A DNA stretch of 64,000 nucleotides, taken from Blasia pusilla (lineage: Eukaryota). Where the stretch lies: NCBI GenBank assembly GCA_050084515.1, contig CM114271.1:15934001-15998000 (forward strand). The letters are read 5' to 3'. The notes under the pieces were generated by a model. That model was not told the origin of the DNA. It saw nothing but the letters and a program-made list of their open reading frames with translations, and searched no databases. Below, one piece after another: positions 5,476 through 35,261 of the stretch. The translations under genes were made by a program, and so were the position numbers. Every line of letters begins with the position of its first letter. The first letter of the stretch is position 1.

Positions 5476-8400
5476 TTGCTTGATATGGATCCTCAGCTTG
5501 GGAGTGGCTGAGCAGCGCCATATGAGATCGCGACAGATCACAGCGGTTGCGTTGGTGAGCCCCATGCCTACCAAGATGATGGAGGCAGTGGTTGGGGGCA
5601 AGACCTGAGGAGATCTACACACCAAGGGAGATCGGGAGAGACACCCTTGGACTTCTTAGGATGTTTTGCAGGTACGCCATGAGATGATAGCCACAACATC
5701 GAGCGTGGTTCTGAGCACTGCACGTGGAGGAGATCAGAGTTTTCAAATGGCTGTAGGAGAGCGGCCGAGTGTTGTTGTTCGAGACGGGGTTGCATCGTAG
5801 CAACCACCGATACCCGCGCCGGAGAGTCCTACCATAGTCACGATGGAGACTTGGGAGCAAGATATGGGCCCTAAGTTGACAGGAGGAGAGCCGCGCCGGA
5901 TACATCAATTCCTCAGGAGTTGTAGGAGTTGCTTTGCATTTAGCATGGAGGATTTGGGTACGCTGAAGGGACGGGGGATCCGCATTGAGTTGTCAAGTGA
6001 AACGCCAATCTTCCGACGAACCTACATGTATAGTGATATGGAGAGGGCTCTGATTCAGAGTAGGAGCCAGGACTTGGTTGGAGCAGGACTAGTGGAGATG
6101 TCGCATGGAGAGTATGCATCTGCCACTATCACGCCCGCCAAGAAGGATGTGCATGGCAACTAGACGGATAGTCGGATATGTGGGGACTACCGACCTATCA
6201 ATCGGCAGACGAAGTCCAGTATGATGCCATGCCCACCCTTGAGGAGATCTTTGATGCGATTGGTCACGCAAAGGTCTTCAGTTCATTGGATTTGCAAGCC
6301 GGATACTAGTAGTTACCTATCAGATTTGAGGATAGGTAGAAGACGGCATTTTGGGGCATCGATCCTCACAGGAAGGATTGTTTGTGCCAGTGGCGGTTCT
6401 TACCATTTGGGTTAAAGAACGCCTCGGCTGAGTTTCAAAGGGTCATGGATAGGATCTTGGCTGGTTTGGATTCTGCTAGGTGTTAAATTGATGACATCGT
6501 AGTCTTTAGCGCCATGGTTAAGGAGCATGAGTGACATCTAGAGGAGGTGTTTCGACGATTGAAATTACATGGGCTGAAGCTACATCCAGGCAAGTGCAAG
6601 TTCTTCTACGACCAGATTGAGTACTTGGGTCATACAATATACCCATGGGGCCTTGGTGTTCAACAAAAGAAGGTAGAGGCTATCTCACGCATTCCACACC
6701 CTACAAATGTGAGCCGTGTTCGCGCATTCATGGGATTGGTGAACTTCTATCGATGGTACGTCAAGATATTCAGTTTGATTGCAAAGCCGCTAACCTTGCT
6801 GACCAAGGTGGATCACGAGTGGCATTGGGGGGATGAGCAGGAGCGAGCATTTCAGTTGCTCGAGGATAGGTTGACGTCCACGCCCATCTTGAGGAGACCG
6901 ATCAGGGGGCATCCTTTCCAATTGCACATAGATTGGAGCATGTTGGGGGCTTGGAGCGGTGCTCACCCAATATGATGATGAGGGACGAGAATACGTGGTG
7001 GCTTACGAGAGCCGCTCGAACAACGTTGTAGAGGCAAAGTACAGCTCGTATGAGGGTGAGTGCTTGGCTGTAGTGTAGGTTGTCGCGCATTTCAGGTGTT
7101 ACTTATTCGGAAACCCCTTTACCATCATCACTAATCATCAACCAATGAAGTGGTTGATGGAGTCCGATAAGCTTATAGGGAAGCTTGCAAGATGGGCTCT
7201 GTTGTTGCAGGAGTATGATTTTCAGGTGGTGCATAGACTTGAGACGCTCAACCAGGATGCAGATGGGTTGAGTCATAACCCATGCTCGAGTCAGAGAGAT
7301 GCGACTAGAGCTTGATGGCATGGAGAGAGTGATGAGGAGTCAGTGCCAAGATGGCATGCGTCAGCCTATTTAGGCATGTTGGCTATGGAGAGCCAGTGTG
7401 GAGACTTTGATGGCGAGGTCTAGTGGAGAGTCCTTGGATCCCGAGGCCAATGTGGAGACGATAGGTAGCCGAGATATTCATGATGATGGAGTAGTCTTGG
7501 AGTACCTTCGTACTGGCAGCATTGCGAGCATAGTGGGTGCTAGAGAGCAGGATCATATCCTACAGCAGGCTAGATGGTTCCGTTGGGAGGGGACACATGT
7601 TTTGAGGGTTTGGGAGGATGGTAGAGTACGCGTAGTGCCGCATCCTTTTCAGAGAGCACGACTAGTGCAGCATGCCCACGAGGAGTTGGGTCACTTTGGG
7701 ATGAAGCAGACGTAAAGATTGTTCTAGATTCAATATTAGTGGCAAGGCGTGCAGACTGACGTTCAACAGTTTGTTGCCAAGTGCATGGTGTGTGATCACG
7801 TTTGAGCATCATTCAATGCTCCGACTCCACAATTTCATCCATTATCGATCATGGGCTTATGGTATAGATGGAGTTTGGATTTTGCAAGACCTTTCCCTTT
7901 GACGGAGCGTCATAGTCGTTATGTGTTGGTGGCGGTCGAGTATTTTTCGAAGTGGATCGAGTTGGTTGCATTGTCTGACAAAGCGAGTGAGGGAGTAGCT
8001 TATGCCTTCCTTGATAGAGTGCTGAGTCATTATGGCGCACTGGCTGAGGTGTTGACACACCAAGGTACCGAGTTTCGTGGTGAGTTCCAGGCCTTGTGTG
8101 ATCAGGCGCTGATTAACCACCGCACGACTTCGCGAGATCATCCTCGAGGCAGGTGGATTAGCGGAGAGAGTTGTACAGACGGTGAAGAGGGATTTACGCA
8201 AGTATGGCTTGCATAGAGGTCACCTAGGAGATTGGGACCTCCAGTTGTTGTGGTTGGCGATGGGATACAGATTCAGCAGGCATGCATCCTTAGCGTCTTT
8301 AGCGCCTTTTTCACCGTACTTGCTACTTTATGACCGAGAGCCAGATTCACCTGCGGCCATTCGTCGAGATGCTGGTGAGGTGCTGGACATTGATGACCCA

Positions 8401-8778
8401 GATATATGGATGCAAGCATGTTCTCATAGGGCTGAGTTATTTCGGAGAGTGATGCTCATGGCGTTCGAGAACTTGGCGATTGCGCATCATCGGAATACGT
8501 TGAGGTATGCGACTATTGGGGGTGGTGGTTATAACCCAACTAGCCGGAGGTTTCATCAGGGAGATTATGTCTACTTGCGATGAGAGCGGCGACCGACGTT
8601 GGATGATCGTAGGGCGCACTATCTTGAGAGTGCGTGACGTTTTGCCCTCTGGTGTTCTCTTGTTGGAGGGACGCGATGGTATGGTATGGAAGGACCATGT
8701 GCGTAATTGTGCGCCATGTCACCTTCCTAACATTGATGGTACATTAGATTCGAGCTCAACTGTAGTTCTTGCAGGCTT

Positions 8779-8910
8779 GCGTTGTATGTTGTGTGATTGT
8801 GCTCGTTAGTCACGATGCTAGTCTGTGATGGATGTTTGAGAGGTTGGCATATGGCATGTCTGACGCCACCTCTCTCTAGGGTTCCTCGGGGACGATGGAT
8901 GTGTCCCAAA
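8779..8910 (+). pseudogene. PHD finger at the integrase C-terminus (F1-a)
   Basis: CMLC...[33 protein letters not shown]4HC3-type spacing, last Cys altered in this copy. Confidence 0.85.
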
Positions 8911-8918
8911 TATACATA

Positions 8919-10120: not shown

Positions 10121-10206
10121 AGCGTCTTAGAGATATATATTGTGATAGGTAGGGATAGATGGTTATCGAGAGTTAGAGGGATCTAACCACCAGCTAGGGG
10201 GGCGAT

Positions 10207-11081
<875 letters not shown>

Positions 11082-12779
11082 AAGTTCATAGGAGCATCAA
11101 AGCTTGTCTGGAATCCATGATCTGTGTTAGTGGACAAGATACGCAGACACCGTGGAAGCCTTCTTGCTTTTTTCACGAAGATCCTAAGGAAGAGCAATCA
11201 GCCATAAGGGAAGTGCTTTTAGGAATTCCTATATAATTTTATATTTGGCACATGCGGAAAGTTTAGCTCCGAAAACTCCATCAACAAGGGAGATGCCCCA
11301 TTACCAAGGTGGATATGAATCAAGACCTTAGTCAAATTATGCACACGCAATATCTCAATATGTGCCATTCTCTGGAAAACTAAAGTTCATCCTAAATAAT
11401 AAATGCCTATCCAGATCCTCAATAAGTGTCAATGAACTTTGATCGTCCACAAGTATGTTATTTCTGTGCCGTATTTTGTGAAATACTACGTTAGTAACTA
11501 GCACCCAAAATTAGGGTCATAGGTGAAGGCATTAAGAATTGAAGCCAAATATGCCCAAGATACAAATGTTGCATGCCCAATTGAAAGATGGCATGCCAAT
11601 TTGAAGACACATCTAACATTAAGCATGCCAACCAATGGAACAAGGAAGATTATTTGGAGATTGAAATATTGACCAATGGAATTGAGAGTATCTTTTGGTA
11701 CATGGCACTCTTGAAGGTGGAGGAAGGGTCATGAATAAGCCAAGCAAGGTTGCATGGAAACATATAGCCGTGTCTAGTCTAGGAAATGCCCAACAATTTC
11801 CATGTCTTGGTTTTTTTTTATAGCCTGGTGACCCATATGGTCTTGGGATGTGGGAACGTGTGCGGGTTTAGATTAAGGGAGGTGGTTAGGAATCGAATGG
11901 GTGTGTAGGATATGAGCCCTTGTCTGGCCCTCATCAAGCCCGCGCTAGTCACAAAACGGGGGTCAAGAATGGGTGACAGGTTTTTGGATTGGGTTTGGGC
12001 TATCCCAGCCCGGATCTCCGTCGTGGGTAGGGCGAGCTCCAAGGTTGCACGAAAATGTACATGCCACCCGCATCGAAGCCCGCCCCCTGAGGGCCGGAGT
12101 TTGTCGAGCGTGTAGCGGGCACCCAAGCTGGCCAAGGCCAAGCCCGGATTGGTTTTGGGGGGGCGGGCCGCGAGCATCCCGGCCTACACGAAATGTCTCT
12201 CACATCTTATTTTGACGTAGGTAGAGTTATCTCGCGTCGACGACATAGAGAGTCAGCAGGTTTTTTGGGTGTAACTTTGTCCCAAGATGTCGGATGAGGT
12301 TGGCGACAAGTTTGTTGTGTCAGGAACGTCGTTTATGGCGATTTCCCAATTTTGGTTTTAGTCCGGCATGTGACCTGCTCGGTCAATGGTCACCCAATAA
12401 CCTATGCATGCGGGTTACCGTTGGGAGGGCTATTTTTGCGAAAAGAGCCTTTTGGCTCTTCCCAAGGGTATAAGAGTGAAGAAGATGGCTTTCCCAAGCC
12501 ATCTTTCTCATGTTGAGCCTTAGGAGCGCCTCTCTTGCATAGATGTGTGTGGGTGTATAGGAGTTAGGGTGCTAACATCCAAATTCCCTTATAGTAGAGA
12601 ATGGATATTGTTCGATATGCCGATGTAGATTCAAGAGTGGAGTTTTAGGCCGGGTGAGCCGTTTTTACCACTCTTGATTTTACATGAGAAAGATGCGAGG
12701 GGGTAGGGAATTCATTGGTTGCAGATAGGTAAGCAAGTTTCCTTGGTGGGGAGACCCTAGAGACGCGTATGTGACGTTT

Positions 12780-13704
12780 TGTCGTGACCCTCATTACCAA
12801 ACAACACCAAATAGGCGCCAAGCAGAACATCAGAACTCGAGTGGACTCACGCTACGATGATCGCGCTTTAGAAAGGCTTTTGGAAGATCTCTTGGAAAAG
12901 TCCAAGAGACAAAACGTGGAACTAAGTTGTGTGTTTTATGCATTAGTGGTCGCGACTGGGAAACCTAGACCATACGCAAGCCAAGACTTGAAATGAGTTG
13001 AGTCTTGGAAGGTTGGTTGCCAAAGAGGTGAGAACTAGTTTAAGAACATGACTAGCATTTGGGTAATTGGACTATCTTTTGGACCATAACGTTTAGCTCC
13101 AAGATGAATTAGAAACAAATAAGGGCGCGTTGGAAAGCTTATCTTAAGACGCTTTCAACACACAAAGATCTCAGCAAACGCATAAGTACAAACTGAGATA
13201 TTAGCAAAAAATGATTGTGAGAGCAATCGGGTTGAGGGCCAATTGGGGAGGCCCGGGTGTCTTTCCCCAAATGTAGAGAACCCCGGAGATCCCTTGAAGA
13301 ACTAGTAAGGGAGGAGTCTCTCCAAGAAGTCTTGGAACACGAATCTCCACTTTGAGCACCAAATGGCGTCTCAGAGGCACGAGATGGAAAGGGAGTTTGG
13401 CGTTGGAACTCGAAACCCAAACCTGATCCAAGGGAGTGGACTTTGTACGCCACACTTGGATTCCAATCCGAGATTCACTTTGTGTGAGTCTCAGTTAGGG
13501 ACTCATTGGACGTCCATCGGAAAGTTAGAACCGCCATGCGCGAAATGTCGTTTGAGGTTCCTAAACCGACCAAAAAGTCTGTCCCAAGTCTTTCAAGACT
13601 TGCCTTTGTTGTAAACCACAAAACTAGGAAGGTTGAGCTTGATGAGAGACCAAGACGAGGACTCAGATCTCGTTGGTGCGGGTTGACGGGGTATATCAAC
13701 GACA
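12780..13704 (+). mobile_element. ~0.9-kb solo-LTR-like element in the F2-a leader
   Basis: TGTCGTG...CGACA ends; about 880 bp homologous to the reverse complement of 57700-58617. No clean TSD seen. Confidence 0.65.
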
Positions 13705-16704
13705 TTTAGTGAAAAGTGTAGGGGCAAGAATTCACGAGTGTGTTTCCGACATGTGAACGGCGAGTGTCGGGAAAGTTGGAAAGGAGAGAAATCAACTTTA
13801 GGTCATGTAGCTGCCTCTCTCAAATGTGCGCGGCCGTAGGCTAGGATACAGGCTAGGATGCGACTAGGGTTAGGTCACGGGCAAGGGATTGGAGGATTTT
13901 GGAGCACTGAGCGAGGATTGGAGGGCCGTGAAGTCGGGAGTCGGGAGTTGCAAGCCGGGGAGAAGACGTTTGGAGAGCAGGGTCGCGAGGTAAGAGGTAG
14001 GAGACGGAGTCCAGAGAGAGAGGATCGGTTGGGGCTGCGCATAGGGCACCATGCTCTAGGACACGGAAAGTGTGTGGGTGGGAAGGGGCCTATTAGGGAG
14101 GCCTGCGGGCCTGGCCCATAGAGTTGCGGGCTCCCCCCCGCCGCATTTAGACCCCCAAAGGTAGACGTGGTTGAGTGCGGACGTGGTAGGCAAGCTGGAT
14201 ATGGTTGGGGCTAGGGTTGATGTAGTAGGGCATGTGGGACGTGGTTTGCAAGGCAGACGTGGTCTGGTGGGCGGACAAGGTTGGGGAACGAGATGACATG
14301 GTAGAGCAAGGAGCTTGACGTGGTTGGTTCACATTACCAGGTTGAGGGGGTTGGACGTGATTGAGTTGAGTTATGTAGTGGGAGAGAGTTTTTGGGGACT
14401 AGATGTATCGCGAGCGTCGATGGGATTCAAAACAGGAGTTTTTTTGGTTATTTTGAGTCGCATGGGGATCGCCGTGATAGTCCTTCACCCATTGTGGATG
14501 CGAGGGTTGTGATGGAGACACACACACACCGATGTTGATGGAAGGTTTGACGTGTTGGTCGAGGAGAGTGTCGTGTTGTGGAGGTTGCCACACCACATGG
14601 AGGAGTGCGTGTTGAGGATGATCATGTTACCCATTCGAGTCCCTCTTCCCACACTTATCTTGTGTGATTGAGAGTGTTGGACATCGGGTAGTTGTTGGTG
14701 CTAGATGGGTGTAGTGATGGTCACAAGTGTAGACTCCTTTCATGTGTAGCATGTTGGTGGATATACGGTGGTTTCCGAGTAGGGGTCACGTGTATGATTC
14801 GAGAGTGTAAGTAGTTTAGGTGAGTTAGTGTGAAGGTCATGGTGAGTCCAAGTGTTGAGCGTGCGTGAGGTCGGGTGTGTTATCACGGGATATGCATTAG
14901 CGTAGGTGAGCTAGTGAGGAGTGTGGGACACTCTCGGTGAGTCTGAGTGCTTGTGTGGGTAAGATAGGGTTGACATCACGGCGTTCTTCCATGGTTTGGA
15001 AGAATGGGGTAGTACGAGTAGTGGTAGTGGAGTGACACGGAGTGGTGTGAGGTATGGAGGGGTTTTGAATGAGGAACCACCCCGACTCCCATCCGTGGCT
15101 GGATCGTCATCACTAGACATCAGGTTTGGTGACGAGATTGCACGTAGGGATGATGATACGTGGAGAGAGATGGACGACATGGGCCACTGTGGCATGCATC
15201 ATTTCTTGGATGCGGTAGGCACCATAGATCTTGACAATTTCATCTAGGAGTTTGACACATGGTGCGACTTCCAGGAGATACGGACCCCTACGCGATTCAA
15301 CCCTTTTATGGCATGGAAGGGGTTGTTCCAACACCTGAACGGGCCGCCGATGAATGATAACATGTAGTTTTGATGTCTATACTCTATAGAGATCAATGCC
15401 TCAAGGATGTATTGGGCTCCAAGGTATGTATCCACTAGTGGCCGCGAGGCGTATGATGGGATAGTGAGAGTGGAGAGATCTTCACCATCAACCCGGGGAC
15501 TAGATGGAGAGGATGGCAGTGAGAGTGGTGAGGTGGCAGAGACCTGTCGTGGTAAAGGACCACCGAGTTTCAATCCTATAGTGGAGTTCTTCCGATCGTT
15601 GGGGAGGAGCTACTAGGGCGTGCGGACCGACAAGTTGAAGAATCTACATGATTTTCAGCAGAGATCGGGTGAGAGTCTGAGAGAGGTGTTCACGCGCATG
15701 AGGAGGCTGATAATTGCTACTTATGGAGTGATTGAGGCACAATCAGTCCAGTATTGGTACGGGGTTTTGGATCAAGAGCTGTGGAGGAGATGTCGTGCGA
15801 ATCCACATCGTCATACAACATACATCGCTGACATACCATACTCACATACATACATAACATAGACGAGAGTATCCACAAACACAAGTGTACCACAACTCAG
15901 CAAGGCGCTTCTTTCCCAACCGACCGCGCACCAGATTCACACCTCCAACATAGGCCACAAGCCACGAACATCCACGGCTGAGTACACAATCAGCCCTAAC
16001 CAGATCCTACTGATCTACAATCGACGCTACCATCGATCTACTCCAGTTCTTTGAGTGAAATCCGTGAAAGACCTACTGTCATAAAACACGTATAAAATCA
16101 CATACAATCGAGCCAAACCCACTCCACGATGGAAGAATCTAGGTCGAAGCTTGCGGGAAACACCATAGCCAAGAGCTCTACTCACTACCAAGGCTAACTC
16201 CCAACGCAACAGGCTCAACTCAAAGAACTGACTGTTCTTTGAGGGCACTCCACCTTATATCCTCCAACCTAAGAGCGGGCCCTACTGGGAAAGTCACCCC
16301 CAACTGAGTAACCCCCAACCCTACGTATGGAACCGCATCTCTACCAAGCCACTACGGTCCTACATAAGGAATGGCCTCTACTAGCACACCATACTCTACG
16401 ACATAATCCGTATGGTCATGACAGCTGTCGTGCGAATCCACATCGTCATACAACATACATCGCTGACATACCATACTCACATACATACATAACATAGATG
16501 AGAGTATCCACAAACACAAGTGTACCACAACTCGCCCCCCTAACTGGCGGTTAGGTCCCTCTAACTCCCAAGTAGCCCTATACATCTACTACATGCTATA
16601 CACCTTCTTTGGTGCCCGAATCAGAAGGCCGGGTGCTAGGTTGCCCCATCGTTAGTCGCACATCTGTAATCCATTTCATGCAAAGATCAAGTTATCTACC
16701 TCTC

Positions 16705-19700
16705 CTAAGTACATCGAGGACAAACCCACCTTCCACTAGGAACAACATCCATACGTGGAGTCAAACACATCATGTGCCAACCCCTAGAACACCGATCACA
16801 CACCAACATACGGGCTGCGTTACCAGCAGATCCACACAACATGCACCTCAAGCTACCACGCATCATGGCTAAGCTTGGGTCAACAGTACCATCCACATTT
16901 GGAAGATGACATGGCGCACAATTACGCACATGGTCCTTCCAAAAAACTCCATCACGACCCTCCAACATGAGAACTCCAGAAGCTAACACCTCGCGCACTC
17001 GTAAAATAGTGAGGCCTACCGTCACATCCAACGTTGTCGGTGCAATCTGCTGCAAATAGACATAGTCCCCCACATGGAACCTAAGAATCGATGGTCGATA
17101 ACCTCCACCTTGAATGGTTGCATACCGCAACGTATCCCTGTGTTGAGCAATGGCAATATTCTCAAAGGCTGTTGGCATAACTCTCCAAAGAGCTCCGCCC
17201 GCTGAGAACACACCCTCATCCACATCTCTGGGTCATCAAGGTTCACGACCTCACTAGACTCCCGACGAATTGCTGCTGGCAAGTCTGGATCTCTGCCATA
17301 TAACACAAAATAAGGTGAGACGGAAGCCAAGGATGCTTGGCGACTGAACCTATACCCCATGGCTAACCATGGCAACTGAACATCCCAGTCTCCAAGATGC
17401 CCTTCAGAGGCCATACTTGCGCAATGCCCTCTTCACCGCCTGAACCACACGCTCGGCCAAACCATCCCCTCGGATGATCTCGAGATGTGGTCCGATGATC
17501 AATCAACGCCTTGTCACACAAGACCTAAAACTCACCCTGAAACTCTGTACCCTGGTCGGTCAGCACTTCAGCTGGTGCACCAAAATGAGTAAGCACTCTA
17601 TCCAAAAATGCATACGCCGTTCCCTCACTTGCCTTGTCCGGTAATGCCACCAACTCAATCCACTTGGAGAAGTACTCCACCATCACCAACACATATCGAT
17701 GATGTAAATGCAATCAACGATAACGGTCCCCAAAGTCCACACTCCAACGGTAACCCAACCCCATAATAGGCAAAGGGTGTAATTGTGGTGTAGGGGCATT
17801 AAATGATGCCCTCACCCGGTCACAAACCATACAACGTGACACCAAGCTGCACTGAGTATGCATGCCACGCCACCAATAATAGCCAAGGAGTAAGCTATAT
17901 GCGTGACGCTTTACCCCAAAATGTCCCAACTCCTCATGGGCATGTCGCACAATGCGCTCTCTCGAGCCAAATGTGGCACTACTCGTACTCTACCATCCTC
18001 CCACACGCGGAGAATATGTGTTCCCTCCAATCGATACCTCTTAGCACGTTGAAGAACACGGTCTCGCTCCTTGGCACTCACTATGCCTGGCACCCTCTTG
18101 GTCCGTAGGAACTCCAACACCAACGCATCATCATGAATATCACGCTGATCCGCACCACCATCTCCAACCTTAGGATATGAAGGTGGCCATCTACCCTCGA
18201 CTAGAGTAAGATATCATGTGGTCCTCCATACTAGAGTCCACCTAACCAACATAAAAGGTGGATGCATGCCAACTGGCACCATCTCCTCATCAACCTCGCC
18301 ATGCCATCTAGCCCAGTTGTATCCTCTTGGCTAGTACATGGGTTCCTACTCAACCCATCAAAGATCAAGGTTGGCAACCTGTGTCTATGTACCACCGGAA
18401 GTCATACTCTGTAAGATAAGAGCCCACCGTGCAAGCTTCCTGTAATCTTGTCCGACTCCATCAACCACTTGAGCGGTTGGTGATCAGATAACAAGGGTAA
18501 ATTGGGTGCCAAACAAGTAACACCTAAAGTGTGCCCCACCACCACACTCTTGCCAAGCACTCTCCCTCATATGAACTATAGCGCGACTCCGCTGCATTAT
18601 TCGAACAACTTGCATAGGCCACCACAAACTCCATGTGCTCATCATCATGTTGTGTCAACACCGCTCCAAGTCCCAACCTACTCCAATCAGTGTGTAACTC
18701 AAATGGGCGCCCTCTGATAGGTCTCCTCAAGATAGGCGCCGCCACCAACTGGGCCTTAAGCTCCACAAAAGCTCTCTTCTGATCATCTCCCCAGTGCCAC
18801 TCTTGATCTGATTTCAGCAATTGGTTCAAAGGCTTTGCCATAGCACTAAATCCTTTCACATACCTCCGATAGTAGTTCGCCAATCCCATGAATGCTCGAA
18901 CTCTACTCACATCTACCGGACGTGGAATAAGTGCAATAGCCTCCACCTTTGCTTGCTGAACTCCCAAACCACCTGGATAGATCACATGACCCAAGTACTT
19001 AACATCCTCATGGAAGAACTTACACTTTCCTGGATGCAAACGTAGACCATGAGCTTTCAACCGCTCAAACACCATCTGCAAATGTATCTGATGCTCCTCC
19101 ACCGTGTTACTGAACACCAAGATATCATCAATGTAACACCGAACAAAATCCAACCCTGCTAGGATCCTGTCCATCACTCTTTGAAACTCGGCAGGTGCAT
19201 TCTTCAACCCAAAGGGTAAGAATTTCCAGTGGTACAAACAATCCTTGCGATGAGAGTTGACACCCCAGAATGTTGTCTTGGCCTTGTCACTCTCCCGAAT
19301 CAGCAATTGATGGTATCCTGCCCGAAGATCCAAAGTACTGAAAATCTTTGCCTATCCCACCACATCAAAGATCTCCTCAGGTGTAGGCATGACATACCTA
19401 TCGGCCTTGGTTTGCCGATTGATAGGACGATAATCTTCACACATCCTTGATTGGTTGTTGCCATGCATATCCTTTTTGGCAGGCATGACAGTGGCTGATG
19501 CATACTCTCCATGCAACAACTCCACTAATCCAACCTCCAAAAGGTCCAACGTCCTACTCTGAATCAAGTCCCTCTCCATATCACTATATCGGTAGGGACG
19601 ACGGAAGATTGGCGTATCACTAGCCAAATCAATCCGTATACCGGGTCCAACCAGAGAACCCAACTCCTTCATGCTAAAGGCAAAACAACTCCTATAAGCA

Positions 19701-22700
19701 CGTAGGAACTGTGTCAAGCGTCGTTTCTCACCTCCCATAAGCTTGGGCCCAAGTAATGGCTCCCAAGTCTCCTCCACTGGCACACTAGAGGGAGAGGGCG
19801 ATGCCATTGGTCGCTCATAACCCCCTCACAAGATGGTACACCCTTAGCTACACCATCATCGAGCAAATAACTCCTCCACCAAAGATGAGCAACCAACTCC
19901 ACATGCCCAACCATTACATCCCATTTACTCCAAGGATGCAAAATACTACTCTCCTCGCCTTGGCCGATGCCTCTACCGCCCCGGTAGCCATCGAGCTCAT
20001 TACAAGGGGTGGAAGACCCACAGACATAGTCCAAAGTCGATTTGCTCGGCCATACCAAGACTCAAAATCCAAGTCAAACAATTCAGGTCCATGGCCTGAC
20101 CCAACACATGACGTCGTGAAGCCTCAGAAATAGAAGCAACCGTTGTCACACCAGTAGCAAATCCCATCGCACGCTCTCTCTCATCAGTGTTAGGCTCCAC
20201 CAATCCGCACATGAGAATCCCATACAAGCTCGGACCACCTTCCCTATAGGCATGTGACGAGGAAAACTCACAAATGTGGGTAGTGCAATCCTAGGTGGCC
20301 CCACGGTTCACCACCGCCATGGGTGACCGATCAATAACCCTCACCACTTGAGAAAGTCGCCAAAGATCAAGATACTATCCTTTGTAAGGCGAGGATCGCC
20401 GACTTTGCATCATATGCTCGACGAGAACCTCCTAGGCAACAAGTTTGTCCACCACAAGCGTGGGCGATGTGCACGTGAGCCAACTCGCATTTGCATCCAA
20501 CAACACCGCTGGTCCAATCCAAGACCGCACCTCATGAACACTCGCCATCATCCACGTCCGAGTGTCACCCAACAATGGAACATTCTCCAGAATGTAAGCT
20601 AGAGCACGTGCCTGATGAACCTGAAGATGTCGTAACACCCGTAACATCTCCCAAAACAATCGAGACCTAGGGTCATGTAATCCGTCACCATGACCAGCAC
20701 GTGTATGACCTTGACATGGCCATCCAGCAATCACCAAATCCACAAGACCAACCCTCTCAAGGTCCTGCGCCCCCAACAATGCAATGTGTGATGGTAAAGC
20801 TTTTGGTACCCACGAATAGCGATGGCGACAACAACTCAGGATATCTCATCAAGCGACCAATATGTCGGGATGAGACTCTCTGGGCCGTCTCATCTCGCTC
20901 CACATACACGTATCTCCGCACAAGAATACCGGCCTGCAACACTGTAGCCAAACCAGTGCTAATCCCACCAAAGAGATCTAACACACAAATGCCCTCCGTC
21001 GGATACTGCCATACAATGGGTGTAGTATCCAAAGGGGATAACCCAACTGGACCAGAAGTAGGAATCCGCCGTGGGGCCTCCTCTTCCTCGTGAGGTATAA
21101 TGACCTCACACCAAGCCTTGCACTAGGCGATCGCCTCCCTGCCGTAGTGCACCGCCTGAACTCCAAAGTGGCACATCCAACGATGAGGATGCCATTGCTG
21201 CAAAAATAGGGACCTCCTCTACCTCCTCATGCATGGGAGAATCCATAGCGAGAAACATTACCCTCAAAAAGTCTCGTGGCCAAGTGACTACTCCACTAAA
21301 ACCAGCCATAGATGCTAACATTGTTGGGAAGACCCTCTGGTCGAACCCAGAAATAAATCTCACAGAACTTGGCTCATACGTCCATCCCGGATTGCCAACC
21401 AGGTCTCAGTAAGACGCTATCTCGATCCCAATAATCCATTTGAAAACCCATCGGGTACAATCGCTCCTCCAACTAGTACATCATACGACTCGGTGATGTG
21501 ACTACATGAGATACTCCCAACCGGGAGCTATCGATCGCATGATCTGGTCTCAATCATGTCAGAAAACTTTTCCCATGTCATGAATTGAGACCTATCATTG
21601 GCTCCTCCAAGTGATGTTTGAATCTGGAATGGGCAAGGCTCAAGCTCGACCTCCGAATACCCAAACCAATACATGCCGCCTTTCCCAACATCAAGGTTGG
21701 GCACCGAGTCTAACAAGACTCTATCTGGTCTATACACTGTCCTATAGGACTCACCAATCGGAAGATCCCACTCGGTTGTCCAACATACATACACCAGGTA
21801 TAAGCCTCTCACGATCAATGGTGGCCGGGTTGGTAATGCATCCATCTTCGCCGCCGCCGCTAAGTAGCACGGTACTCAATGCTACACGACATAGAGGGTC
21901 GCTCCACCGCAACATCCTCATCCACCTCAACACGTGTAGAATAACATCCCCACGTTCACACAATGTGGTCGCTAGCTGAAATCAGAGCTAAGTCAACTCC
22001 TAAAGCCATCACTCCGTGGCGAAAACAATGGGGATCCCAACACTGAAGTTGCCATCCGCAATACTGCACTGGATGTTGCATCCGTGTCTACTACACGCGA
22101 TGTAGATGCCTCAGTCCCCACTATCGGCTCAATAGGCTGCGTAGGAACCATGGATGGAGTCCTAAGCACCTCAGACAACAAGAATGATGGGAAGCCTAGC
22201 TCGCCTCCCGGCCTCACCCCTCTGTGGGTCCAACTCCACAAGTAGGACCACGTGGCTCGACGCTCGAGTGGCTCCTCTCAGAATAGCAGATTGATGCCTC
22301 AACTTTTGTCTTTGCACTCGCCATACAAGAGAGATCATCCCCTCCATAAGAGGTGGAAGCTCCTGCTCCCGAACCTGATCTATGTTGGATACCAACCATA
22401 GTAGCCAACTTCTGCTCCAACTGCTCAATCCTAGCAGCCATAGCTGACTCTGTCGTAGTGGTAGGGGTAGCCACCGTAGGCTCTCCAACCACCTGGTCCA
22501 CCTCTACCACCCCTACCACCTCTACCACCTCGACCTCTCAGAGCTACTCCACCACGGCCGCGGCCTGATCTCAACTATGGATGAAGATCAAAGCAACGCT
22601 CTCGAGGATGATCTGGTCTCCCGCAATGATCACACTGAGTTGGGGCCGATCGAGGCCCATCCTCCAAAGTCCATCTCCCATCCTCTTGGGGACAAAACTT

Positions 22701-23818
22701 CCTAACATGATCACCTCCACATGTCCAACATGATTGTCCTTGCTGGGGCAGCAAATGAAGGCAATGGTCTCTGCGCAAGTGTCCCTCTAGGACTTGGTCG
22801 AGGTCGCGTGTACCCCACGACTCCCCTACTACTACCACCACCACTACTACGAGGCGTGAGGTGGGGGCGGCCGAACACGAGAAGTAGTAGTTGTATCCCT
22901 CTGAATGCGGATGTCACCACTCTCTCCTTCACCATGTTAAGCTCAATCTTCTCGAGATAGAGCAAACACATGGGTCAATGTGGGTGAATCATCACTCATA
23001 AGAGTAGCATCACGCACCCTACTGGCGCAAATCTCTGTCCAAGATCCCATACCAAAATCGATCTGCTCGATCCTCGAGTCACACCTGGGTAATCGAAATC
23101 AAGCGTCGATATCAGTGTATGCCTCACGAAGACTCTCACTAGTCTTTCGCTCAAATTCTGAAGATTCCTCAACTTCTCCGTCTTCACTCCTCGATAGTTC
23201 TTCTTCAACCTCTTGAAGAACTCGCAACTGGGTGAACGATGGTGGGGCACTAGTACCTCCACTAGTACCCCCACTAGTACCTCCACTGGTACCCCCACTC
23301 CGGCTCGTACTCATACCACTCAACGTCAGGCTGGATGGCATAGTAGGAGCACTACTACCAATACCACCATGGGTGATAGACACATAGCCTGGAGACCAAT
23401 ATTGTCTCCATGCCTCAATCTCAGCAACATGGTCCTTCCTAAACTCATGGTAATCATCCATGGGTGGTCCTTCCAAGTGTTGAAACAACCCCTTCCAAGC
23501 CAAGAATGGTGTAAACAACGTGGCGTTCCGCAACATCTGCATATCACACCACGTATCAAACTCCTGCATGAAGTCCTCCAACTCAATGGTACCCACTGCA
23601 CCCGAGTATCTTCGTGGACCCTTCATGGCCCCATATCCACCGTCCATGTCCCAAATCAATGGAGCTGCAACACTCGATAACAACGTAGAAGACTCGGTGT
23701 TTGGAACACCCTCGTCCTCCTCTTCATCAACCGTCGGAAGTGGAAAAGGTAGCCGATACCTAAATCCACTCTGTGTGAAACCACCACTGTCCCCAACCAG
23801 ACCACCCGACAGCTCCGT
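16705..23818 (-). pseudogene. F3 polyprotein Gag-PR-C5 MTase-RT-RNaseH-IN-PHD (frameshifted)
   Basis: CWTCGGDHVRKFC, CDHCGRPDHPRERC; VLLDS; RT DLRAGY, PFGLKNA, YIDD (ORF 18524-19333); LHTDWS; AHEELGHFG/CMVC; VLTDQGTEF; PHD CMLC..CDRC..H..C..WVCPRC (16708-16845). Confidence 0.93.
20087..20984 (-). pseudogene. DNMT3-like C5 MTase domain (F3)
   Basis: VLDLFGGISTG, YVYVERDE, DLVIAGWPCQGH, YILENV, ERERAMGF, SRRHVLGQAMD. Confidence 0.9.
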
Positions 23819-26800
23819 GATGACCAACGCCGATGCCGCACCACCACCAAATTACCCAAGTGACGTCGATGTCGCTCTACTATTGTAGCTCTACTAGCTA
23901 TGGGTGTAGGCAACCTAACCTCTCATCACCACAAGAAGCCTCCCACGGTCTACTGGTCATCACTCCAGCCTCACTATTTGTAGCACACAGGAGTAACACT
24001 ACTCTGGAAATCAGCGTCAACCCTAACAATGGGCGCGCAAGCAAGAAGCACGATGGAGGGGATCCAAACACAGGAAGTCCAACGACAATCCTCCAATCGC
24101 AAATGGAAATCAAGGTAACACAATCCACCAAACGTGGTGCCCCCTGAATCCACAAAACCCACCACATAATTCTAATGCAATAGCTACTCCGCCGCGAGTC
24201 GATGACGTACTAGTCGAACTCGCAGCACCTGAAAATATCACCTGCATGGAGAGGCTACACCGTACTATGCTCTAGAGGTACATCAACCAAAAACCTGAGA
24301 TGCATAAAGCGCCTAACACATCTCCGAACAGCACCAAATGAGCTACAACAATGTGTACATTGGCATAGTTAAGAACTCAGCAGTTAAGCGTCCTCCAGGC
24401 AGAATAGCCCAAAGATGGGTGACCAGTTATGCAAAACTAAAATCCCAAATCCTGCAAAAATTTCCTCACGCCCAAGCAAGCAAGCAAGCTTGCTTGCTTG
24501 CTTGCTCCTTGCTCCTTACTCCGCCTCTCACGCCCACTCGCCCCGAGCTACCACGAGTTGCCTCGAGTTGCCTCGAGTTGCCTCAAAACGTCGAGAAATG
24601 CTCGAGACATGCCCCATTCGCCACGCTTCGCCATGCTTCACTATGGAGAGAGGCCCAACCAGGGCGTCCCCAATGGGATAGGCGTCTCCAACAATGAACG
24701 AGTCACCAACCAACCAGCCCCTTCGATCCGCTGTCCACCATAACCAGACCTTGAGCTAGTCCGCGAAATTTCGATCAAAAATTACTTCACAAATCCATGA
24801 CTGAAATTGAATCTGTTTCAACCAGAATTCAATTGACCACCATAGCTATCTCTCCACAAAAAATCAGCTACAACCGAGCTCTGTACCCCGAGCTAAAAAT
24901 CAAACAAACTTGTTGTCCATACACCTCCAGAATCGCAAATCCGACAGCGCTGCCGCCAAGTTTCATGCACGCAGAAATCCGCAACGCTCCACACACTCGA
25001 GCAAATAGATTCACAGGAGATCACAATATGAGTAGCAACAGGAACCTCTCACCCGATCTGGATGAACTTCAACAGAGCTCTCCACATCAGAAAACCGTCG
25101 AACACGAACCAGAATCTTCAATCCTTGATAACTTCCAACTCCCTTGACGAAATCCGGCGATCTAAAGCGCGTTGGAAAGCTCTCACCAAGGCGCTTCTTT
25201 CCCAACCAACCGCGCACCAGATTCACACCTCCAACATAGGCCACAAGCCACGAACATCCACGGCTGAGGACACAATCGCCCCCTAACAGATCCCTTCGAT
25301 CTACAATCGGCTACCATCGATCTACTCAGTTCTTTGAGTGAAATCCGTGAAAGACCTCTTTGTCATAAAACACGTATAAAATCACATACAATCGAGCCAA
25401 AAACCCACTCCACGATGGAAGAATCTAGGTCGAAGCTTATGGAAACACCATAGCCAAGAGCTCTACTCACTACCAAGGCTTACTCCCCCAACGAAACAGC
25501 TTAACTCAAAGAATCGATCGTTCTTTGAGGGCACTCCACCTTATATCCTCCAACCTAAGAGCGGGCCCTATTGGGAAAGTCACCCCCAACTGAGTAACCC
25601 CCAACCCTACGTATGGAACCGCATCTCTACCAAGAAACTACGGTCCTACATAAGGAATGGCCTCTACTAGCACACTATACTCTACGACATAATCCGTATG
25701 GTCATGACAGAGAGTTTGGGATGCGATGTTGCTTCACACGGCGAAGCCCACATTGAAGGTGGTCTTTGGGTTTTCTGAGCGGGTAGAGCTCAACATGAGT
25801 GAGGAGCAGGTGGTAACCATGGGGTGTTCATGGGAGTCAGCGGGTCCACGAGTAGGATAAGATCCATAGGTGCTCCAGCATGCACCAATACCACGGGCAA
25901 ATGGGCCCAAAGAGCACAGCGGGTATCGTGAGACGATGAGGCAACGGCCCGTACCGACATATATTACCCAGTAGGGACTACGGTTGGCTTGTTAGACGTG
26001 TGGTGGGCCACAATGGTAGAGGGACTGCCCACAACATGGGAGAGGGCCACGGGCACCTCCGATTGCTCAGGAGCCATAGAGGATGTCCCAACCACAGTTG
26101 CAATGTGATCATTATCACCGATATGGTCACACTAGGGATAGGTGTTATGATCTTTGCGGGGAGGTACGTCTAGAGGTAGGCAAAGGACTTGGGGGCGAGA
26201 GAGTTGGTGGAGATTGAGTAGTGGATGATTGTGGTGGTAGAGTGCCATCACCAATCACAGGAGATGGAGGACGTGCACCCGATGCAGCGCTCCTTACCCG
26301 CATCGATCAGTTGGAGCAGAGGATTGCTTCCATGACAATGATGCAGCTACATGAGGCTGCTACGGTGATGACTCGAGATGCTGCGAGAGTAATCGAGCCA
26401 TCAAGAGGTAGGGTTGAGATTGACCCACATGAGGGGACCGTGGGCGGCAGGACAGGGTTCCCGAGTCGTTCACATTGTCAGAGGTACTACATACATCGTC
26501 AATGGTGCCTCAATGACCGATAGTACCCATGGGTGAGGCAGGTGCATCAACATTATGAGGAGTTGGAGAGATGACTCCTATGCCGGCTCGAGAGGAGCCA
26601 ATGTCGACCATGTTGTTTGAGGTAGCCACTATGGTGAGCCACACTCCGTTGTTTTTCGCCATGGAGTTGGCGACGTTGGGAGTTGGACCAAGGGAGGTGT
26701 TCCGGTTGGCTGCCACGTTGTGTGAGCATGGAGAGGTGACTACCTTTCGTTTAGAGGTAGTTGAGGAGGTGGTGGACTTGCCCTCAGAGCAGGTGGTCGG

Positions 26801-29800
26801 GATGTCTCCCATTGAGTCATGGCATGCTACGGCGGCGGAGTTGGTAGATATGCTAGCTAGGCTAGCGATAGAGTGAGCCATGATCACACCAGGTGTGATG
26901 TTATTGGATAATCGAGCATGAGTGTTTTGTTGGGTTAGTCCCATATGTACGGTATACCACCCGCAGCGTGTCCTACTTGATTCGGGAGCACAAACCCTGA
27001 TATTAGGGAAGGCGGTGTGTTTGGCGTTGGGGTTATTGAAAGGTGACATCGAACGTTGTCCCTTTCAGATACAGACCTCTATTGGGGGCATATCATCCAC
27101 GTAGTACATGACTCGACAAGAGTTGGTGGTTAGACTTCAGCCAGAGCATGAGTCGGATAGTGCGATGGTGCGCACTTGGGCAATTACGACACTGGCACAC
27201 TCATATGATATGTTGGTAGGGAGTGCGGTGTTGTATCCCCTTGGGTTTATTCTGGATTTTTGGGAGGAGACGATTTCTTATTGGCCACGGTGGCGATCAC
27301 GTGATGGATGGGTGAGCCATCTGCCGATGTTGTTTGCAGGGAGTAGTGGTGGTCAACCACGTGAGGATACGGTGACCATGTTGGCAGCATTCACAAGTGG
27401 TGTTAGTTGATCATGAGGGTTCGGAGAGAGGAGCACACATGCGGAGCACATTCCCATAGTGGATAGTCCCACGAAAAGATATGCCAGGGTGGGTGTCTCT
27501 TCCCATGGTGTGGAGCTTCTTTATTGTTGTTAGGAACGAGCGTTGAGATGCGTGGAGTGTAGACAAGCTTTTGAGGCATGCATGGAGCCGTGCCTATGTT
27601 TGGAGCAGGATACGAGAGTGTTAGATCTCTTAATTTGGAGGGATCAACACGGCAGGTTGTTGTAGTGTTGCGGGGGTAATGGTACCGATCATGCTAGATG
27701 TATATATGATAGGAGATCATGTCGGGGACATATATGTGTGCTATCTGGAGTTGGGGGTATCCAACTGCCAGCTAGGGGGGCGGTTGTGGGGTTCTTTTGT
27801 ATATGCGTGAGTATATATATTTTATGTGTGGATCTATCCGTATGTTAGGGAAGATTGGTGTTGTATGGTGTGTAGACGTGACTAGCGAAGTGGGTTGTGT
27901 AGCGATGTGTATGCGCACGACAACTATCACATCTTATTTTGACGTAGGTAGAGTTTTATCGCGTCGACGACATAGAGAGTCAACGGGCTGTTTTGGTGTA
28001 ACTTTGTCTCGGGATGTGGAATGAGGTTGGCGACATGTTTGTTGTGTCAGAAATATCGTTTATGGAGATTTCCCTATTTTGGTTTTAGTCCGATATGTGG
28101 CCCGTTGAACAAGTCGATGGTCATCCGGTAACCTATGCATGCATGTTACTGTTAGGAGGGCAATTTGTGGGAGAAGAGCCTTTTGGCTCTTCCCAAGGAT
28201 GTAAGAGTGAGGAATATGGCTTTCCCAAGCCATCTTTCTCATGTTGAGCCTTAGGAGCGCCTCTCTTGCATAGATATGTGTGGGTGTATAGGAGTTAGGG
28301 TGCTAGCCTCTAGATTCCCTCATAGCAGAGGGTGGATGTTGTTTGATATGTCGATGTAGATTCAGGAGTGGAGTTTTAGGCCGGGTGAGCCAATTTTACT
28401 ACTCTTGATTTTGTTGTGGGGCTCCTTTGTATATGCGTGAGTATATTTTTTTTATGTGTGGATCTATCCGTATGTTGGGGAAGATCGGTGTCGTGTGGTA
28501 TGTAGATGTGACCAGCAATGTGGGTTGAGCAGCGATGTGTATGCGTACGACATGTCCGACGGACATAAGTCCACGGATATGGATTTTTACCATGTGCAAG
28601 CTTGAAGGCAATCCACGGAGTGATGACTATGGCCATAAAGAATGCAAAAGAAATTCTCGATTCCCATGTTGCGTTTGAAGATTTCCATGGCGTAAAATAT
28701 ATGAAGATGTTGAGTAAGTCCAAATGACAATTCTGGCACTCAATATGCAATTACAACTTGAAGAATGTTGCATGCACATTCCCAAATGCGCAAGAAAATA
28801 CCACATGCAAGCACCAAGTTAGTGTCCAACTAATTGCTACTTCAAAAGGAATGCACACAATTCACAAGTCTATGAAGCTTAATTGCATCTTGTTTACGCT
28901 TCAATTTTTTAAAATCTGGTTGGGCTATCGTGCGAGGGGAAGTGTCTCTTGCTATCTAGAGTCATCGAGGCATAAGTTCTATTATATCTTTAGCCAAATT
29001 TTGAACTACAGTTGGAAGCTTTCAAAGGCCTTGCTAAGTATCGAGAAGGTGACCTTTAGGAACTATCCAAGTCTAATTAACAGACCGTTGATGAACAAGA
29101 TTACATATTCCCTAATGACGAGAGAACCATTGAGGATGCTTAGAACTTGGCAAGGCCATCTGCCCTTAATATTGAAAATATGTTACAGAAGCTCATGAAA
29201 GTTATTGAAGCTTCTGACTCACACCAACTTGTGATTGACCATACCATACAACAAATGAAATCAGTTTATAAGTCCATTCTCACTTTGAAGGCAAGGAGTG
29301 ATGAGAATGTGCTCTCTACATCAATTGCAGTCGAATACCACTTGAAAGCTTTGTACCAATTAGGCTACTTGATAGGTAATTGAGACAAAGTGGAGTGGGT
29401 TGAAGCCTTACATAGTAATAGTAGGCGCAAACTGAACAACAACTATGAAATTATCATTGTTCAAACCCTGCCCCCTTTCCAACGAGAAGAAAGGGTCAAA
29501 TTCAAGGATATGCAAATAGAGGTAGATATGGCTACCATTGACATGGTTCTAGTTGAATTTCCTACAAACCATACATTATAAGCTTGTAGAAAAGTGATGG
29601 AAAATCCAAGTTGTTATACTCGATCATGAGTGGAAGGTCTTTTGATGAAAAATGTACATTCTTGAATTTTTCACCCATTAAAATTTGAGTATTCACCTCA
29701 TGTCCTTCAAATGCTCTTGGTTACTTGTGTGTTTTTCACCTACTCTATATTGGGAGTCTGTTTGGAACTACTACATCAATAATTGGATGCTCAAAGAAAA

Positions 29801-32166
29801 TGCGAGTAAGTGATAAGCCATCTGTAAACAAGAGATTCCCAATCCAAGAAACTAGAGTCATTGGTTCTTAAGAAAGCAAACTCTCATTCTTTATATGACA
29901 ATTAAACTTTAGATAGAGTCAGAATCCAAACCATTCTGGTTTGGTAGATAGATGGAATCCCTTGATAAAGTCACAAACCACTTCTCAAAGCCAACCCAAG
30001 TGCTCCTAGTATGCCCTCTTTCCATAAGTGACTTGCTTGCATTGGCTCATAACTCCACATATCAAGAGTTTGCCAATAAGCAAGAAAGCCCTACACCAAG
30101 CCTCAAAGGGGAATTCGAGCGACTTGTCATGAATCCATGAGGCTAACTTGGTCATGCGCACTCTCACACAAAGGTGAGGTTGAACCCCATGTATTAGGAG
30201 GTTGGATGAATCTCGCCATGCATGTATATAGAAGCCCTTAATAAACTCTTAGACCGCATTTCAATGCCAACCTAAATGCCCTCGTATGTCCTTTTTCCAG
30301 AAGCAACTTGCTCTCACCAGATCATAATTTGAACTCCAGATATATGGAGTTCGCTTTAAAAAAACCTACCATGGATCACTATACAACAAACAAGAAAGCC
30401 CTACACCAAGCCTCAAAGGGAAGACCAAGTAATTTTCCCTCGTGCTTTCCAAGATTAAGTTATGGAACTTGCATTTCCATGTGAGAATCCAATGTTATGG
30501 AGGCAATCCACACCCTACTGCCCACTACCGGAGCATTGGGTGAGAATTCACAACTTCCTTGGTAGATTTTTGAGAAATTTACGTTACAACGTTTTGTACG
30601 AGAAAGGGAAAGATGAACAACCAACCCACTTGGCTTGAGTCCGGACACCGCACCGCATTGCTAGAGGCACGTCTAGCTAGAATCAAAGGTATGTAGAGGC
30701 AAGGATCTATATGATGCAGCAACTAGCGGGACGGTGGTGTGTGTGGAGTCCACAAGATTATGAAGAACCTTGCTCAAATGGGCAGAAGAGATCCATACAT
30801 CCCTAAGGGTCACGTTTACGAAATGACTGGTTTTATTGCATAGATTGATGCCAATCGCGATGCATCCCAATCGTAATCTAAGTCAAGACGAGGGCCCCAA
30901 TCATCTTGGCCAAAGAATTAGAAATATGCAGCGACTCAATTGCATGAGAGTGCACTCCTTGGATGAGACATGAGCGAGTTTGGACTTTGGAGGAGGACTT
31001 ATCCCATAACATCTCATCATTAAGCTTGAGGAATATTTTCAATTCGTGCCTCTTGATGCTTGATCGATTCAACCTTCTAATCTATGTTGAATTTGTTATT
31101 TAGATACTACAACCTTTATATTTACATATTTCCCTGATGGGAGAGATCACTCGAGAGTGCAAGGGGAAAAAAATCGACATGGGAGCATGTGATAGTTCTC
31201 AGCGACAGTAGTCCAGCCTTAACCATGGAATGGTCGAGTTGTGTCTACACACTCGCCTCTCTTTTTCTGCGGGTTCGAGTTTTCCACTAGCTGTGCAAGA
31301 TCCTCGACATGGAAGCATATGACAATTCCCAATGAACGTTTGTGAGGTGTCGAGAGAGGCTAAGCAATCGAAAGAAAATACCTACATTAAGATTATGGTC
31401 ACAATATGCCTGTGCATAGCACGAGCATTCTTACTAGTAGTATGATAAGTAAGCAAGATAAATGTATGTGTCAAACAAATGCCATCTATTCCTTCACGAA
31501 ATTGAAATTTAATTACAGTATTTCTTACATAAGAGACACTAGTAAAGACTTATAATAGACTGCTTAGTAATGCACAAATCCCTATTCACGGCCTCTACAG
31601 ATATGTGTCAGTTTTTTTTCTCATCGTTTATATTATCCACGTGTACTCCACATGTATGTTTAGTAATTTTATAATACTTTCCCCCTCTCAAGGCCGCACT
31701 GGTTAATAATTCGAGTTAATATTTCACTCTCCTTACCAATATCTCCATATCACTCCAAAAACATTTTGGAACTGTGACATGTGTCAAACATAGAGGAGGA
31801 GGAAAAAAAGGTATCCTTAAATTCTTAAACTGTTAAATCATTAAATTTTATTCTTAATTCTTAATTTAAATATAATAATCTTAGTTATAAAAGAAAATGT
31901 TTACGGCAGCACACCAACTAGTGCTGCCTTGTAACGCGTGCTCGGCTGAAAGATGATGGACCGATATAACGCAGCAGAGACCCGTCTTTTGAAACCTCTA
32001 CGGGAAGACGAGCTAGTCTGGACAGGGAGGGTATTAGGGCAGACAGAGGGATCGACAGGACGAGGGTCGAAGAGAAGCGCGGGACGAGGCACGCGAAGGT
32101 TTGATCTCGCGATCGAGTAGGGGGTTGGCGTAGGGAGTTTATCATCCACAGCAAGTGCTTGCAAAG

Positions 32167-35100: not shown

Positions 35101-35261
35101 TTTTCACAGGTCGCAAGAAGGAGAGTATCTTCAAATCTCCGGATGATCCAAAGGGGAAGGTGGGTGTTACAGGTAGTGGCAAAGGAATTACGGAGTTTCA
35201 CAAGCGGGAAAAGCACCTTCACATGAGAGTAGGAGGAGAGGATGGAGAAGACTGGCAATGA
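32167..35261 (+). CDS. SPF30: Survival of motor neuron-related splicing factor 30 (Tudor domain, SMNDC1 homolog), 8 exons, 299 aa
   Basis: Exons 32167-32226, 32535-32603, 33141-33251, 33457-33536, 33659-33734, 34314-34520, 34711-34839, 35094-35261, all GT-AG, giving one open frame. N-terminus MQSGAELEENLSTYEEQLQQV; Tudor GSRVQAVWSEDGEWYNAIVEAITPNGYFVSYDEWGNKEEV; C-terminus KRQNAWQQF...ESIFKSPDDPKGKVGVTGSGK. Confidence 0.95.

Follow-up and report, generated by a model that had tools for sequence, protein, structure and literature searches.

By textbook account, the direct repeats of a retroelement go with its enzyme: split direct repeats with a tyrosine recombinase, and paired long terminal repeats (LTRs) with a DDE integrase. 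Tyrosine-recombinase retroelements such as Ngaro and PAT/TOC are not known to leave a target-site duplication (TSD). An element with Gypsy domains and a DIRS-like repeat arrangement, KnitGypsy-Dnmt3 of Klebsormidium nitens, has been described in the legend of Fig. 4c of de Mendoza et al. 2018 (PMC5890265), and 'streptophytes (Gypsy-DNMT3)' are mentioned in a 2026 preprint as an already described case. The main-text parts of the 2018 paper give no TSD, termini, primer-binding site (PBS), polypurine tract (PPT) or mechanism for KnitGypsy-Dnmt3, and our literature search found no paper analysing the termini or mechanism of these Gypsy-DNMT3 elements; the 2018 supplement may hold more. Two mechanisms known from other retroelements are relevant here: self-priming of the Tf1 type has been predicted for the plant elements Tcn1 and TAR (Neumann et al. 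2019, PMC6317226), and retroviral integrases cleave palindromic LTR-LTR junctions (PMC1905944, PMC1180852).

Here we analyse a 64,000-nt stretch of the genome of the liverwort Blasia pusilla (contig CM114271.1; the whole stretch is henceforth referred to as 'the window') and in particular one element within it, F3 (15791-25709, minus strand). The original prediction for this DNA held that its elements combine a Gypsy reverse transcriptase (RT) and a DDE integrase with split repeats of the order B...A-B-A, and that they constitute a distinct retroelement type with an Ngaro-like replication layout. The combination is real, although, as the legend cited above indicates, it was already in print for KnitGypsy-Dnmt3 (PMC5890265): the window elements are probably liverwort members of the lineage whose odd repeats were noted in 2018, and the layout itself is not new. 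The sequence does support a specific candidate mechanism that we did not find in print. The explanation that we judge best overall, and consider fairly probable, is that these are Ty3/Gypsy LTR retrotransposons of the streptophyte 'Gypsy-DNMT3' kind in which the LTR would be A-nn-B and the integrated copy would be permuted. The 'Gypsy-DNMT3' assignment itself draws on Pol domain content and repeat layout and is to that extent provisional.

Layout, limits and coding content of the elements

F3 is a complete but degenerate element of the order B1-PBS-leader-gag-pol-PPT-A1-nn-B2-A2. Read along the plus strand, its repeats follow one another as A (15791-15896), B (15897-16423), the dinucleotide GC, A (16426-16531) and, after the internal region, B (25182-25709), so that on the coding (minus) strand these correspond to A2, B2, A1 and B1, respectively. 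A1 and A2 are 98% identical and B1 and B2 93% identical. The element has termini of the TG...CA type (TGTCATG...CACGACA), with B1 starting with TGTCATGACC and A2 ending with CGCACGACA, and is bounded by a perfect 4-bp duplication, TCTC, at 25710-25713 (5' copy) and 15787-15790 (3' copy).

Five further copies in the window, two of them complete and three partial, share this layout, which is thus present in all three of the window's subfamilies; here the original prediction was right, its coordinates included, to within a few bases. F2-a (12198-28552, plus strand), inside which F3 is nested, has B1 at 12198-12681, a PBS (ACATGAGAAAGATG, 12682-12695), A1 at 27783-27922, B2 at 27925-28412 and A2 at 28413-28552, and is flanked by a perfect TSD (TGTC at 12194-12197 and 28553-28556). 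F1-b (50338-60990, minus strand) has B1 at 60482-60990, a PBS (CAAAGAGAGAATGAG) just below 60482, and a 3' block (50338-51008) consisting of an A1 shortened to ~30 nt (a remnant reaching 51008), B2 (50466-50978) and A2 (50338-50465); its TSD copies, ACTT at 50334-50337 and AGTT at 60991-60994, differ by one base. F1-b is inserted in another element, between the pre-RT and RT parts of the latter, and two uninterrupted paralogs provide empty sites against which the insert is exactly B1...A2 with a 4-bp duplication AGTT. The partial copies comprise the 3' A-B-A block (10205-11078, plus strand) of an element that has its genes at 1678-8916 and its 5' B outside the window; the 3' A-B-A block (61794-62568, minus strand) of an element leaving the window at its right end; and the 5' B of a further F1 copy (37545-38062, plus strand), which is followed directly by PBS and leader, without A. 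The A2 of the block at 10205-11078 contains a long (GT)n microsatellite (10909-11020) and a ~102-bp tandem duplication (10890-11076).

Further copies were obtained from metagenome contigs collected by RT alignment, in each of which the A, B, leader and pre-PPT segments were classified; duplicates from the same locus were counted once (L016=L017, L033=L032, L024=L022 and L031~L027, with L016, L033, L024 and L031 dropped). The B...A-B-A layout was found in 12 distinct metagenome contigs, and it is shared by close relatives of F3, with 75-88% RT identity, and by a distant group with 43-50%. Among 30 distinct 3' ends, 17 read A-nn-B-A, three read A-nn-B and are incomplete (two reach the contig end and one, L028, passes into unrelated sequence), and ten read PPT-A only. 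The original description, in which the 3' end reads PPT-A-B-A, did not include the PPT-A-only forms. At the 5' end, none of 19 distinct ends carried A after B, and no B-A-B was found either, so that the integrated copies do not have the two complete terminal LTRs of Ty3/Gypsy elements.

With the element ends fixed by the internal junction sequence, TSDs of 4 bp were scored in 11 elements: five were perfect, four had one mismatch and two had two mismatches. Shifted controls gave at most one mismatch in 5 of 55 cases (binomial P for at least 9 of 11, ~1e-10). No TSD was found around the A-B-A block alone. These results bear on the explanation that the layout is secondary, i.e. that ordinary two-LTR elements have been altered by solo LTRs inserted by chance or by local duplication following insertion, or merely seem altered through assembly artefacts. 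The window would suit such events, being a dense nest of related elements, old and rearranged, in which individual copies have private deletions and duplications and all copies are broken by stops. However, the junctions are exact to the base in 17 distinct 3' ends from the window, metagenomes and sequencing-run contigs, including lineages whose RT is only 43-50% identical to that of F3; A1 and A2 are full-length copies; the A-B-A block has no TSD of its own; and the divergences of the A pair and the B pair are correlated (see below). We therefore consider this explanation largely refuted and its truth very improbable indeed.

The coding content of F3 is that of a Ty3/Gypsy element with two additional domains, which were absent from the original description. 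Within pol (all minus strand) lie a C5 cytosine DNA methyltransferase domain (20432-21122; PF00145, E 1.4e-9; FGG, PCQ and ENV motifs), RT and RNase H of the Ty3 type (18524-19825; RVT_1 1.9e-29, RT_RNaseH_2 3.7e-23), an integrase (17022-18213) with an H2C2 zinc domain (17714-17989) and a C-terminal PHD finger (16705-17232; PF00628, 4.1e-11). The best PDB matches of the F3 RT are 4ol8 (2.4e-46) and 7q5b, i.e. Ty3 RT and Gag-Pol. Three intact relatives (P0041, P0053 and P0023) have the Pol order PR-DNMT-RT-RH-H2C2-rve-PHD, with PF00145 upstream of RT in all three, and F3 has the same domain order. Although the F3 integrase is broken, its stretch 17465-17962 aligns to residues 1523-1688 of P0041, and both the H2C2 domain (residues 1518-1574) and the rve core (1594-1686) of P0041 fall within the stretch aligned to F3. 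Together with the PR-RT-RH-IN order, the short TSD, the TG...CA termini and the PBS and PPT beside the repeats, these are the features of a Ty3/Gypsy element. Searches for a tyrosine recombinase (PF00589) were negative for all 20 sense-strand open reading frames (ORFs) of F3 that reach 90 aa or more and for the three intact relatives, and the domain is likewise missing from those listed for 120 protein hits. Upstream of pol are gag remnants (22575-23851, minus strand) with a CCHC-like knuckle (CWTCGGDHVRKFC) that was read by eye; they are homologous to those of other copies, and a Pfam search of the gag region gave no match. A methyltransferase domain lies upstream of RT in every element copy (further sites at 4430-5056, 43633-44259, 48821-49441 and 54337-54973), and a PHD finger takes the place of a chromodomain at the C-terminus in F3 and at least three other copies.

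Priming sites, repeat junctions and a proposed permuted LTR

In these elements B contains a site complementary to the 11-15 nt directly 3' of B1. In 11 of 14 5' ends, an 11-mer starting between positions -5 and +3 of the B end pairs with the B site with at most one mismatch, against a background of sporadic matches only (390 windows per element). The pairing partners vary among lineages (CAAAGAGAGAATGAG, ACATGAGAAAGATG, CTCAAAGAACT and TCTAGAAAAACTA) while complementarity is kept, which amounts to covariation in four lineages, and in 7/8 B copies the paired primer site is preceded, at a distance of 28-31 nt, by a TATA box. Most likely, then, transcription begins within B, ~30 nt downstream of the TATA box, and the pattern of PBS and TATA box would be the signature of self-priming as in Tf1. 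In F3, the PBS CTCAAAGAACT (25328-25338, minus strand), a homolog of which lies directly 3' of B in the related copy L010, is complementary to the first bases of the predicted transcript; the self-primer AGTTCTTTGAG lies in B2 (16219-16229, minus strand), 30 nt downstream of a TATAAGG motif (16253-16259), and its counterpart in B1 (25505-25515) is degenerate. No TGG-initial (tRNA-type) PBS was seen by eye after B1, and nothing consistent was found for pairing of A with B or with the leader.

The opposite border is equally sharp. The G-run PPT abuts A1 in all copies inspected, and in every copy inspected A1 (after the PPT) and A2 (after B) begin at the same base. In F3 the PPT AGGGGGGCGA (16532-16541) ends a block (16532-16575, minus strand) that is the best-conserved non-coding stretch among five copies compared, and A1 begins with the very next base. 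The repeats are joined to each other in two ways. At B2|A2, the end of B that borders the PBS meets the start of A that borders the PPT. The A1-nn-B2 joint, in turn, fuses both integrated termini in a near-palindrome, CACGACA-nn-TGTCATG (CA-nn-TG), which in F3 (CACGACA-GC-TGTCATG, 16417-16432, minus strand) places the right and left termini head to tail and is here proposed as an att site. The two middle bases differ by transitions between copies, which indicates that the joint is inherited and not random.

Since the repeat borders coincide with the PPT and the self-primed PBS, they point to ordinary LTR-type reverse transcription with later permutation, and the Ngaro-like replication layout that had been proposed is not borne out. 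In outline, ordinary LTR-type reverse transcription would give a linear cDNA that runs from PPT to PBS and has two LTRs, each A-nn-B. The outer ends of this cDNA would not be the ends on which integrase acts, the recognition sequences of integrase being joined inside the LTR instead; the DDE integrase would open the cDNA at the internal site of the 5' LTR, and the integrated B...A-nn-B-A would represent the cDNA with its outer ends joined (to give B2|A2), that is, a circular permutation. More speculatively, integrase may commit to the site in the 5' LTR as this LTR would be double-stranded long before the 3' LTR, host end-joining could close B2 to A, whether ahead of strand transfer or following it, and the B...A and solo B-A forms could arise later by recombination between A copies or B copies. 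Both this pathway and the reason why only one permutation occurs are inferred. A bolder proposal, which we put forward tentatively and judge rather less likely than not, is that throughout the streptophyte lineage the pre-joined palindromic att inside the LTR is the only integrase site, so that an end-joined cDNA is an obligatory precursor and the provirus is always permuted.

Two further sets of observations are consistent with the permuted LTR. Firstly, the divergence of the A pair and that of the B pair are correlated (r 0.84, n=8), and A copies do not cluster by position (between-element identity 0.844 for A1-A1, 0.864 for A2-A2 and 0.854 for A1-A2), which together indicate that, like LTRs, both pairs are made anew whenever the element transposes. 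When B divergence was split into upstream and transcribed parts, no clear pattern emerged. Secondly, F3 provides what may be a natural test, albeit in a single case, of the B|A joint as the junction of the cDNA outer ends. In contigs from four sequencing runs (examined as contigs only, three of the runs being merely guessed to be RNA, and giving no transcript starts, ends or levels) the start of A is joined to ...GGATTTCA, directly before the PBS, as in L010. In F3, the family-typical B stops at 25339 in B1, and the repeat extends through the PBS and ~150 nt of leader; likewise, the family-typical part of B2 (16056-16423) is followed by ~160 nt of leader with a second PBS copy (15897-16055) that is private to F3. 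The B2|A2 joint of F3 thus lies ~160 nt deeper in the leader than that of other copies, B and A2 being separated by the PBS and ~150 nt of leader, which is as expected if the minus strand was primed further downstream and the joint follows the minus-strand 5' end. The B|leader boundary of F3 is probably a private variant; by eye, an imperfect local hairpin is present there. Run contigs of other genomic copies skip the leader segment 15897-16055.

The borders, the renewal of the repeats and the F3 shift also bear on a DIRS/Ngaro-like restoration, in which the transcript would lack the outer parts of B1 and A2, the A1-nn-B2 joint would template or bridge both termini, and the DDE integrase would insert the resulting linear DNA. 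This would account for an internal joint that is exactly the joined termini, like the internal complementary region of DIRS-1 (PMC7192593), and for a layout that equals the A1...B1-A2-B2 of PAT/Ngaro (PMC4157794); moreover, contigs of the runs guessed to be RNA span B2|A2 and the whole of A2, so the joint may be transcribed. Yet such restoration leaves unaccounted for the exact coincidence of the B end with a self-primed PBS and of the A start with the PPT, it does not predict the 160-nt shift of the joint in F3, and separate copying of A1 and A2 would lead to drift by position, which was not observed. With TSDs present and a tyrosine recombinase absent, we regard it as unlikely.

The ten 3' ends without B-A comprise four complete copies (L003, L018, L030 and L036) and six for which only the 3' end is available (L022, L023, L027, L042, L071 and L078). 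Three of the four complete B...A copies have a perfect 4-bp TSD (L003, L018 and L030, that of L030 being the low-complexity TTTT) and L036 has none. On the tree, B...A copies do not cluster but are interspersed with B...A-B-A copies (9 rows, with 7 changes of label), which indicates that they arise repeatedly from the main B...A-B-A form. The PPT-A-only ends could reflect deletion through recombination of A1 with A2, or could themselves be a further primary product of integration. A solo B-A in L071 (~6060-6524, minus strand) with TG...CA ends and flanks AAGT/AAAT (a TSD with one mismatch) is the counterpart of a solo LTR.

That B...A copies with TSDs exist would also fit a pararetrovirus-like cycle, in which an episomal circle of B-leader-genes-PPT-A-nn would be transcribed for more than one round, as in Caulimoviridae, and the genomic copies would be occasional over-length integrations. 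Terminally redundant RNA with a single PPT and PBS would likewise fit, and after Ty3 the next closest match of the RT is an 'Enzymatic polyprotein' chain (8r0s). However, an over-length copy of the circle would have B-leader after B2, and the B|A joint is off the circle path; an intact DDE integrase and the regularity of the 4-bp TSDs suggest that integration is the usual route, and the scatter of B...A copies on the tree also speaks against such a cycle, which we consider very unlikely.

Several points weigh against the permuted-LTR explanation itself. Three of the 14 5' ends show no PBS pairing, namely L004, L041 and F3, in which the PBS lies inside the repeat, and B of the L010 type has two PBS-pairing sites (~170 and ~255). 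The B2|A2 joint is nearly uniform among copies, which fits exact blunt joining and a templated joint equally well. All copies seen are degenerate; the start of transcription is deduced from TATA spacing and pairing only, and the end-joined intermediate is presumed. Ten of the 30 3' ends are without B-A and could be primary products instead of deletions. Moreover, if a circle has two identical internal sites, opening at either would be expected, but only one permutation exists. A kinetic explanation of this strict direction (0/19), in which the 5' LTR is finished first, may be suggested.

Two other routes were considered and dropped. If a 2-LTR circle were opened at random, B-A-B...A copies should be just as numerous, yet none was seen among 19 5' ends. 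If instead the minus strand were primed at the 3' end of the RNA, or the B|A joint were templated via the RNA tail, one would expect B-A-B at the 5' end or A copies that are not renewed. In L010 and L014, which belong to the F3-like group, the first of the two B sites (~170 and ~255) is the only one located 30 nt after the TATA box.

Other features of the window

Besides the elements described above, the window contains a lone A fragment (40726-40859, minus orientation) between internal regions of the F1 and F2 types; we considered and rejected it as a solo element, as it looks like a rearranged fragment. Three tandem copies of a 424-bp unit (94% identical) occupy 44761-46022, within the coding region that precedes RT in a plus-strand element. 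Element homology is lacking over only one long stretch, ~28600-37500, which has a lower G+C content (0.40-0.46) and includes the longest ORF of the window (31901-32761, minus strand, 286 aa). GC skew tracks element orientation, at about +0.2 to +0.3 in plus-strand and -0.2 to -0.27 in minus-strand elements, and the sense strand is therefore G-rich and C-poor throughout the window.

Comparison with known retroelements

What is new here are the border of PPT and A, the border of PBS and B, the palindromic joint and the renewal of the repeats. The textbook tie between repeat layout and enzyme is broken in many copies from several plant lineages, and the readable priming sites permit a testable account of how a split-repeat provirus could come from standard two-jump reverse transcription. 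This bears on the replication of DIRS, PAT and Ngaro elements, on the substrate range of DDE integrases and on the biology of methyltransferase-carrying retrotransposons in bryophytes and charophytes. In Marchantia, transposable elements are derepressed in mutants of DNA methylation (10.1101/363937). In practical terms, LTR finders that require two matching LTRs would miss or mis-bound these elements. If an end-joined precursor were indeed obligatory, the elements would be a present-day instance of the circle-junction route formerly suggested for retroviruses, and would represent an intermediate by which the split repeats of DIRS, PAT and Ngaro could have arisen from LTR elements before integrase was exchanged for a tyrosine recombinase.

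The closest described element, KnitGypsy-Dnmt3, shares with the window elements a Gypsy-type Pol with an internal cytosine methyltransferase and, to judge from the published figure legend, DIRS-like repeats. The RT of the window elements is, by contrast, closest to liverwort proteins among the named hits (Marchantia 83%, Calypogeia 80% and Riccia 75% identity) and is only ~54% identical to K. nitens proteins, for none of which PF00145 is listed; hits from Closterium reach 47-49%. A scan of viral contigs returned mostly contigs of 7-8 kb with ~30-35% RT identity, which are probably caulimovirus-like.

With Tf1/Sushi and plant Tcn1 the window elements have in common a PBS that directly follows the 5' repeat and is complementary to the (here predicted) transcript start and not to a tRNA. 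In marked contrast to the window elements, however, Tf1/Sushi and Tcn1 are described as having two complete LTRs, TG...CA at the LTR ends and a chromodomain, whereas in the window elements the TG and CA sites lie inside the LTR as defined by reverse transcription and the C-terminus is a PHD finger. Ngaro and PAT/TOC have the same repeat order, with a single repeat 5' and three repeat units (both kinds, one of them twice) 3', and their internal joint likewise consists of the joined termini (PMC4157794, PMC7192593), but, in the accounts given there, they carry a tyrosine recombinase gene, and the models proposed have them integrate from circular DNA, whereas the window elements have a DDE integrase and 4-bp TSDs, as left by a staggered cut.

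Finally, the proposed opening of the LTR resembles what has been reported for retroviral 2-LTR circles (PMC1905944, PMC1180852), in that a DDE integrase would cut an internal CA-nn...TG palindrome made of two joined ends. In the retroviruses of these reports the palindrome exists only in circles and serves a side route, whereas in the window elements it is a permanent part of every LTR and would, by the permuted-LTR explanation, be the sole site of integrase.

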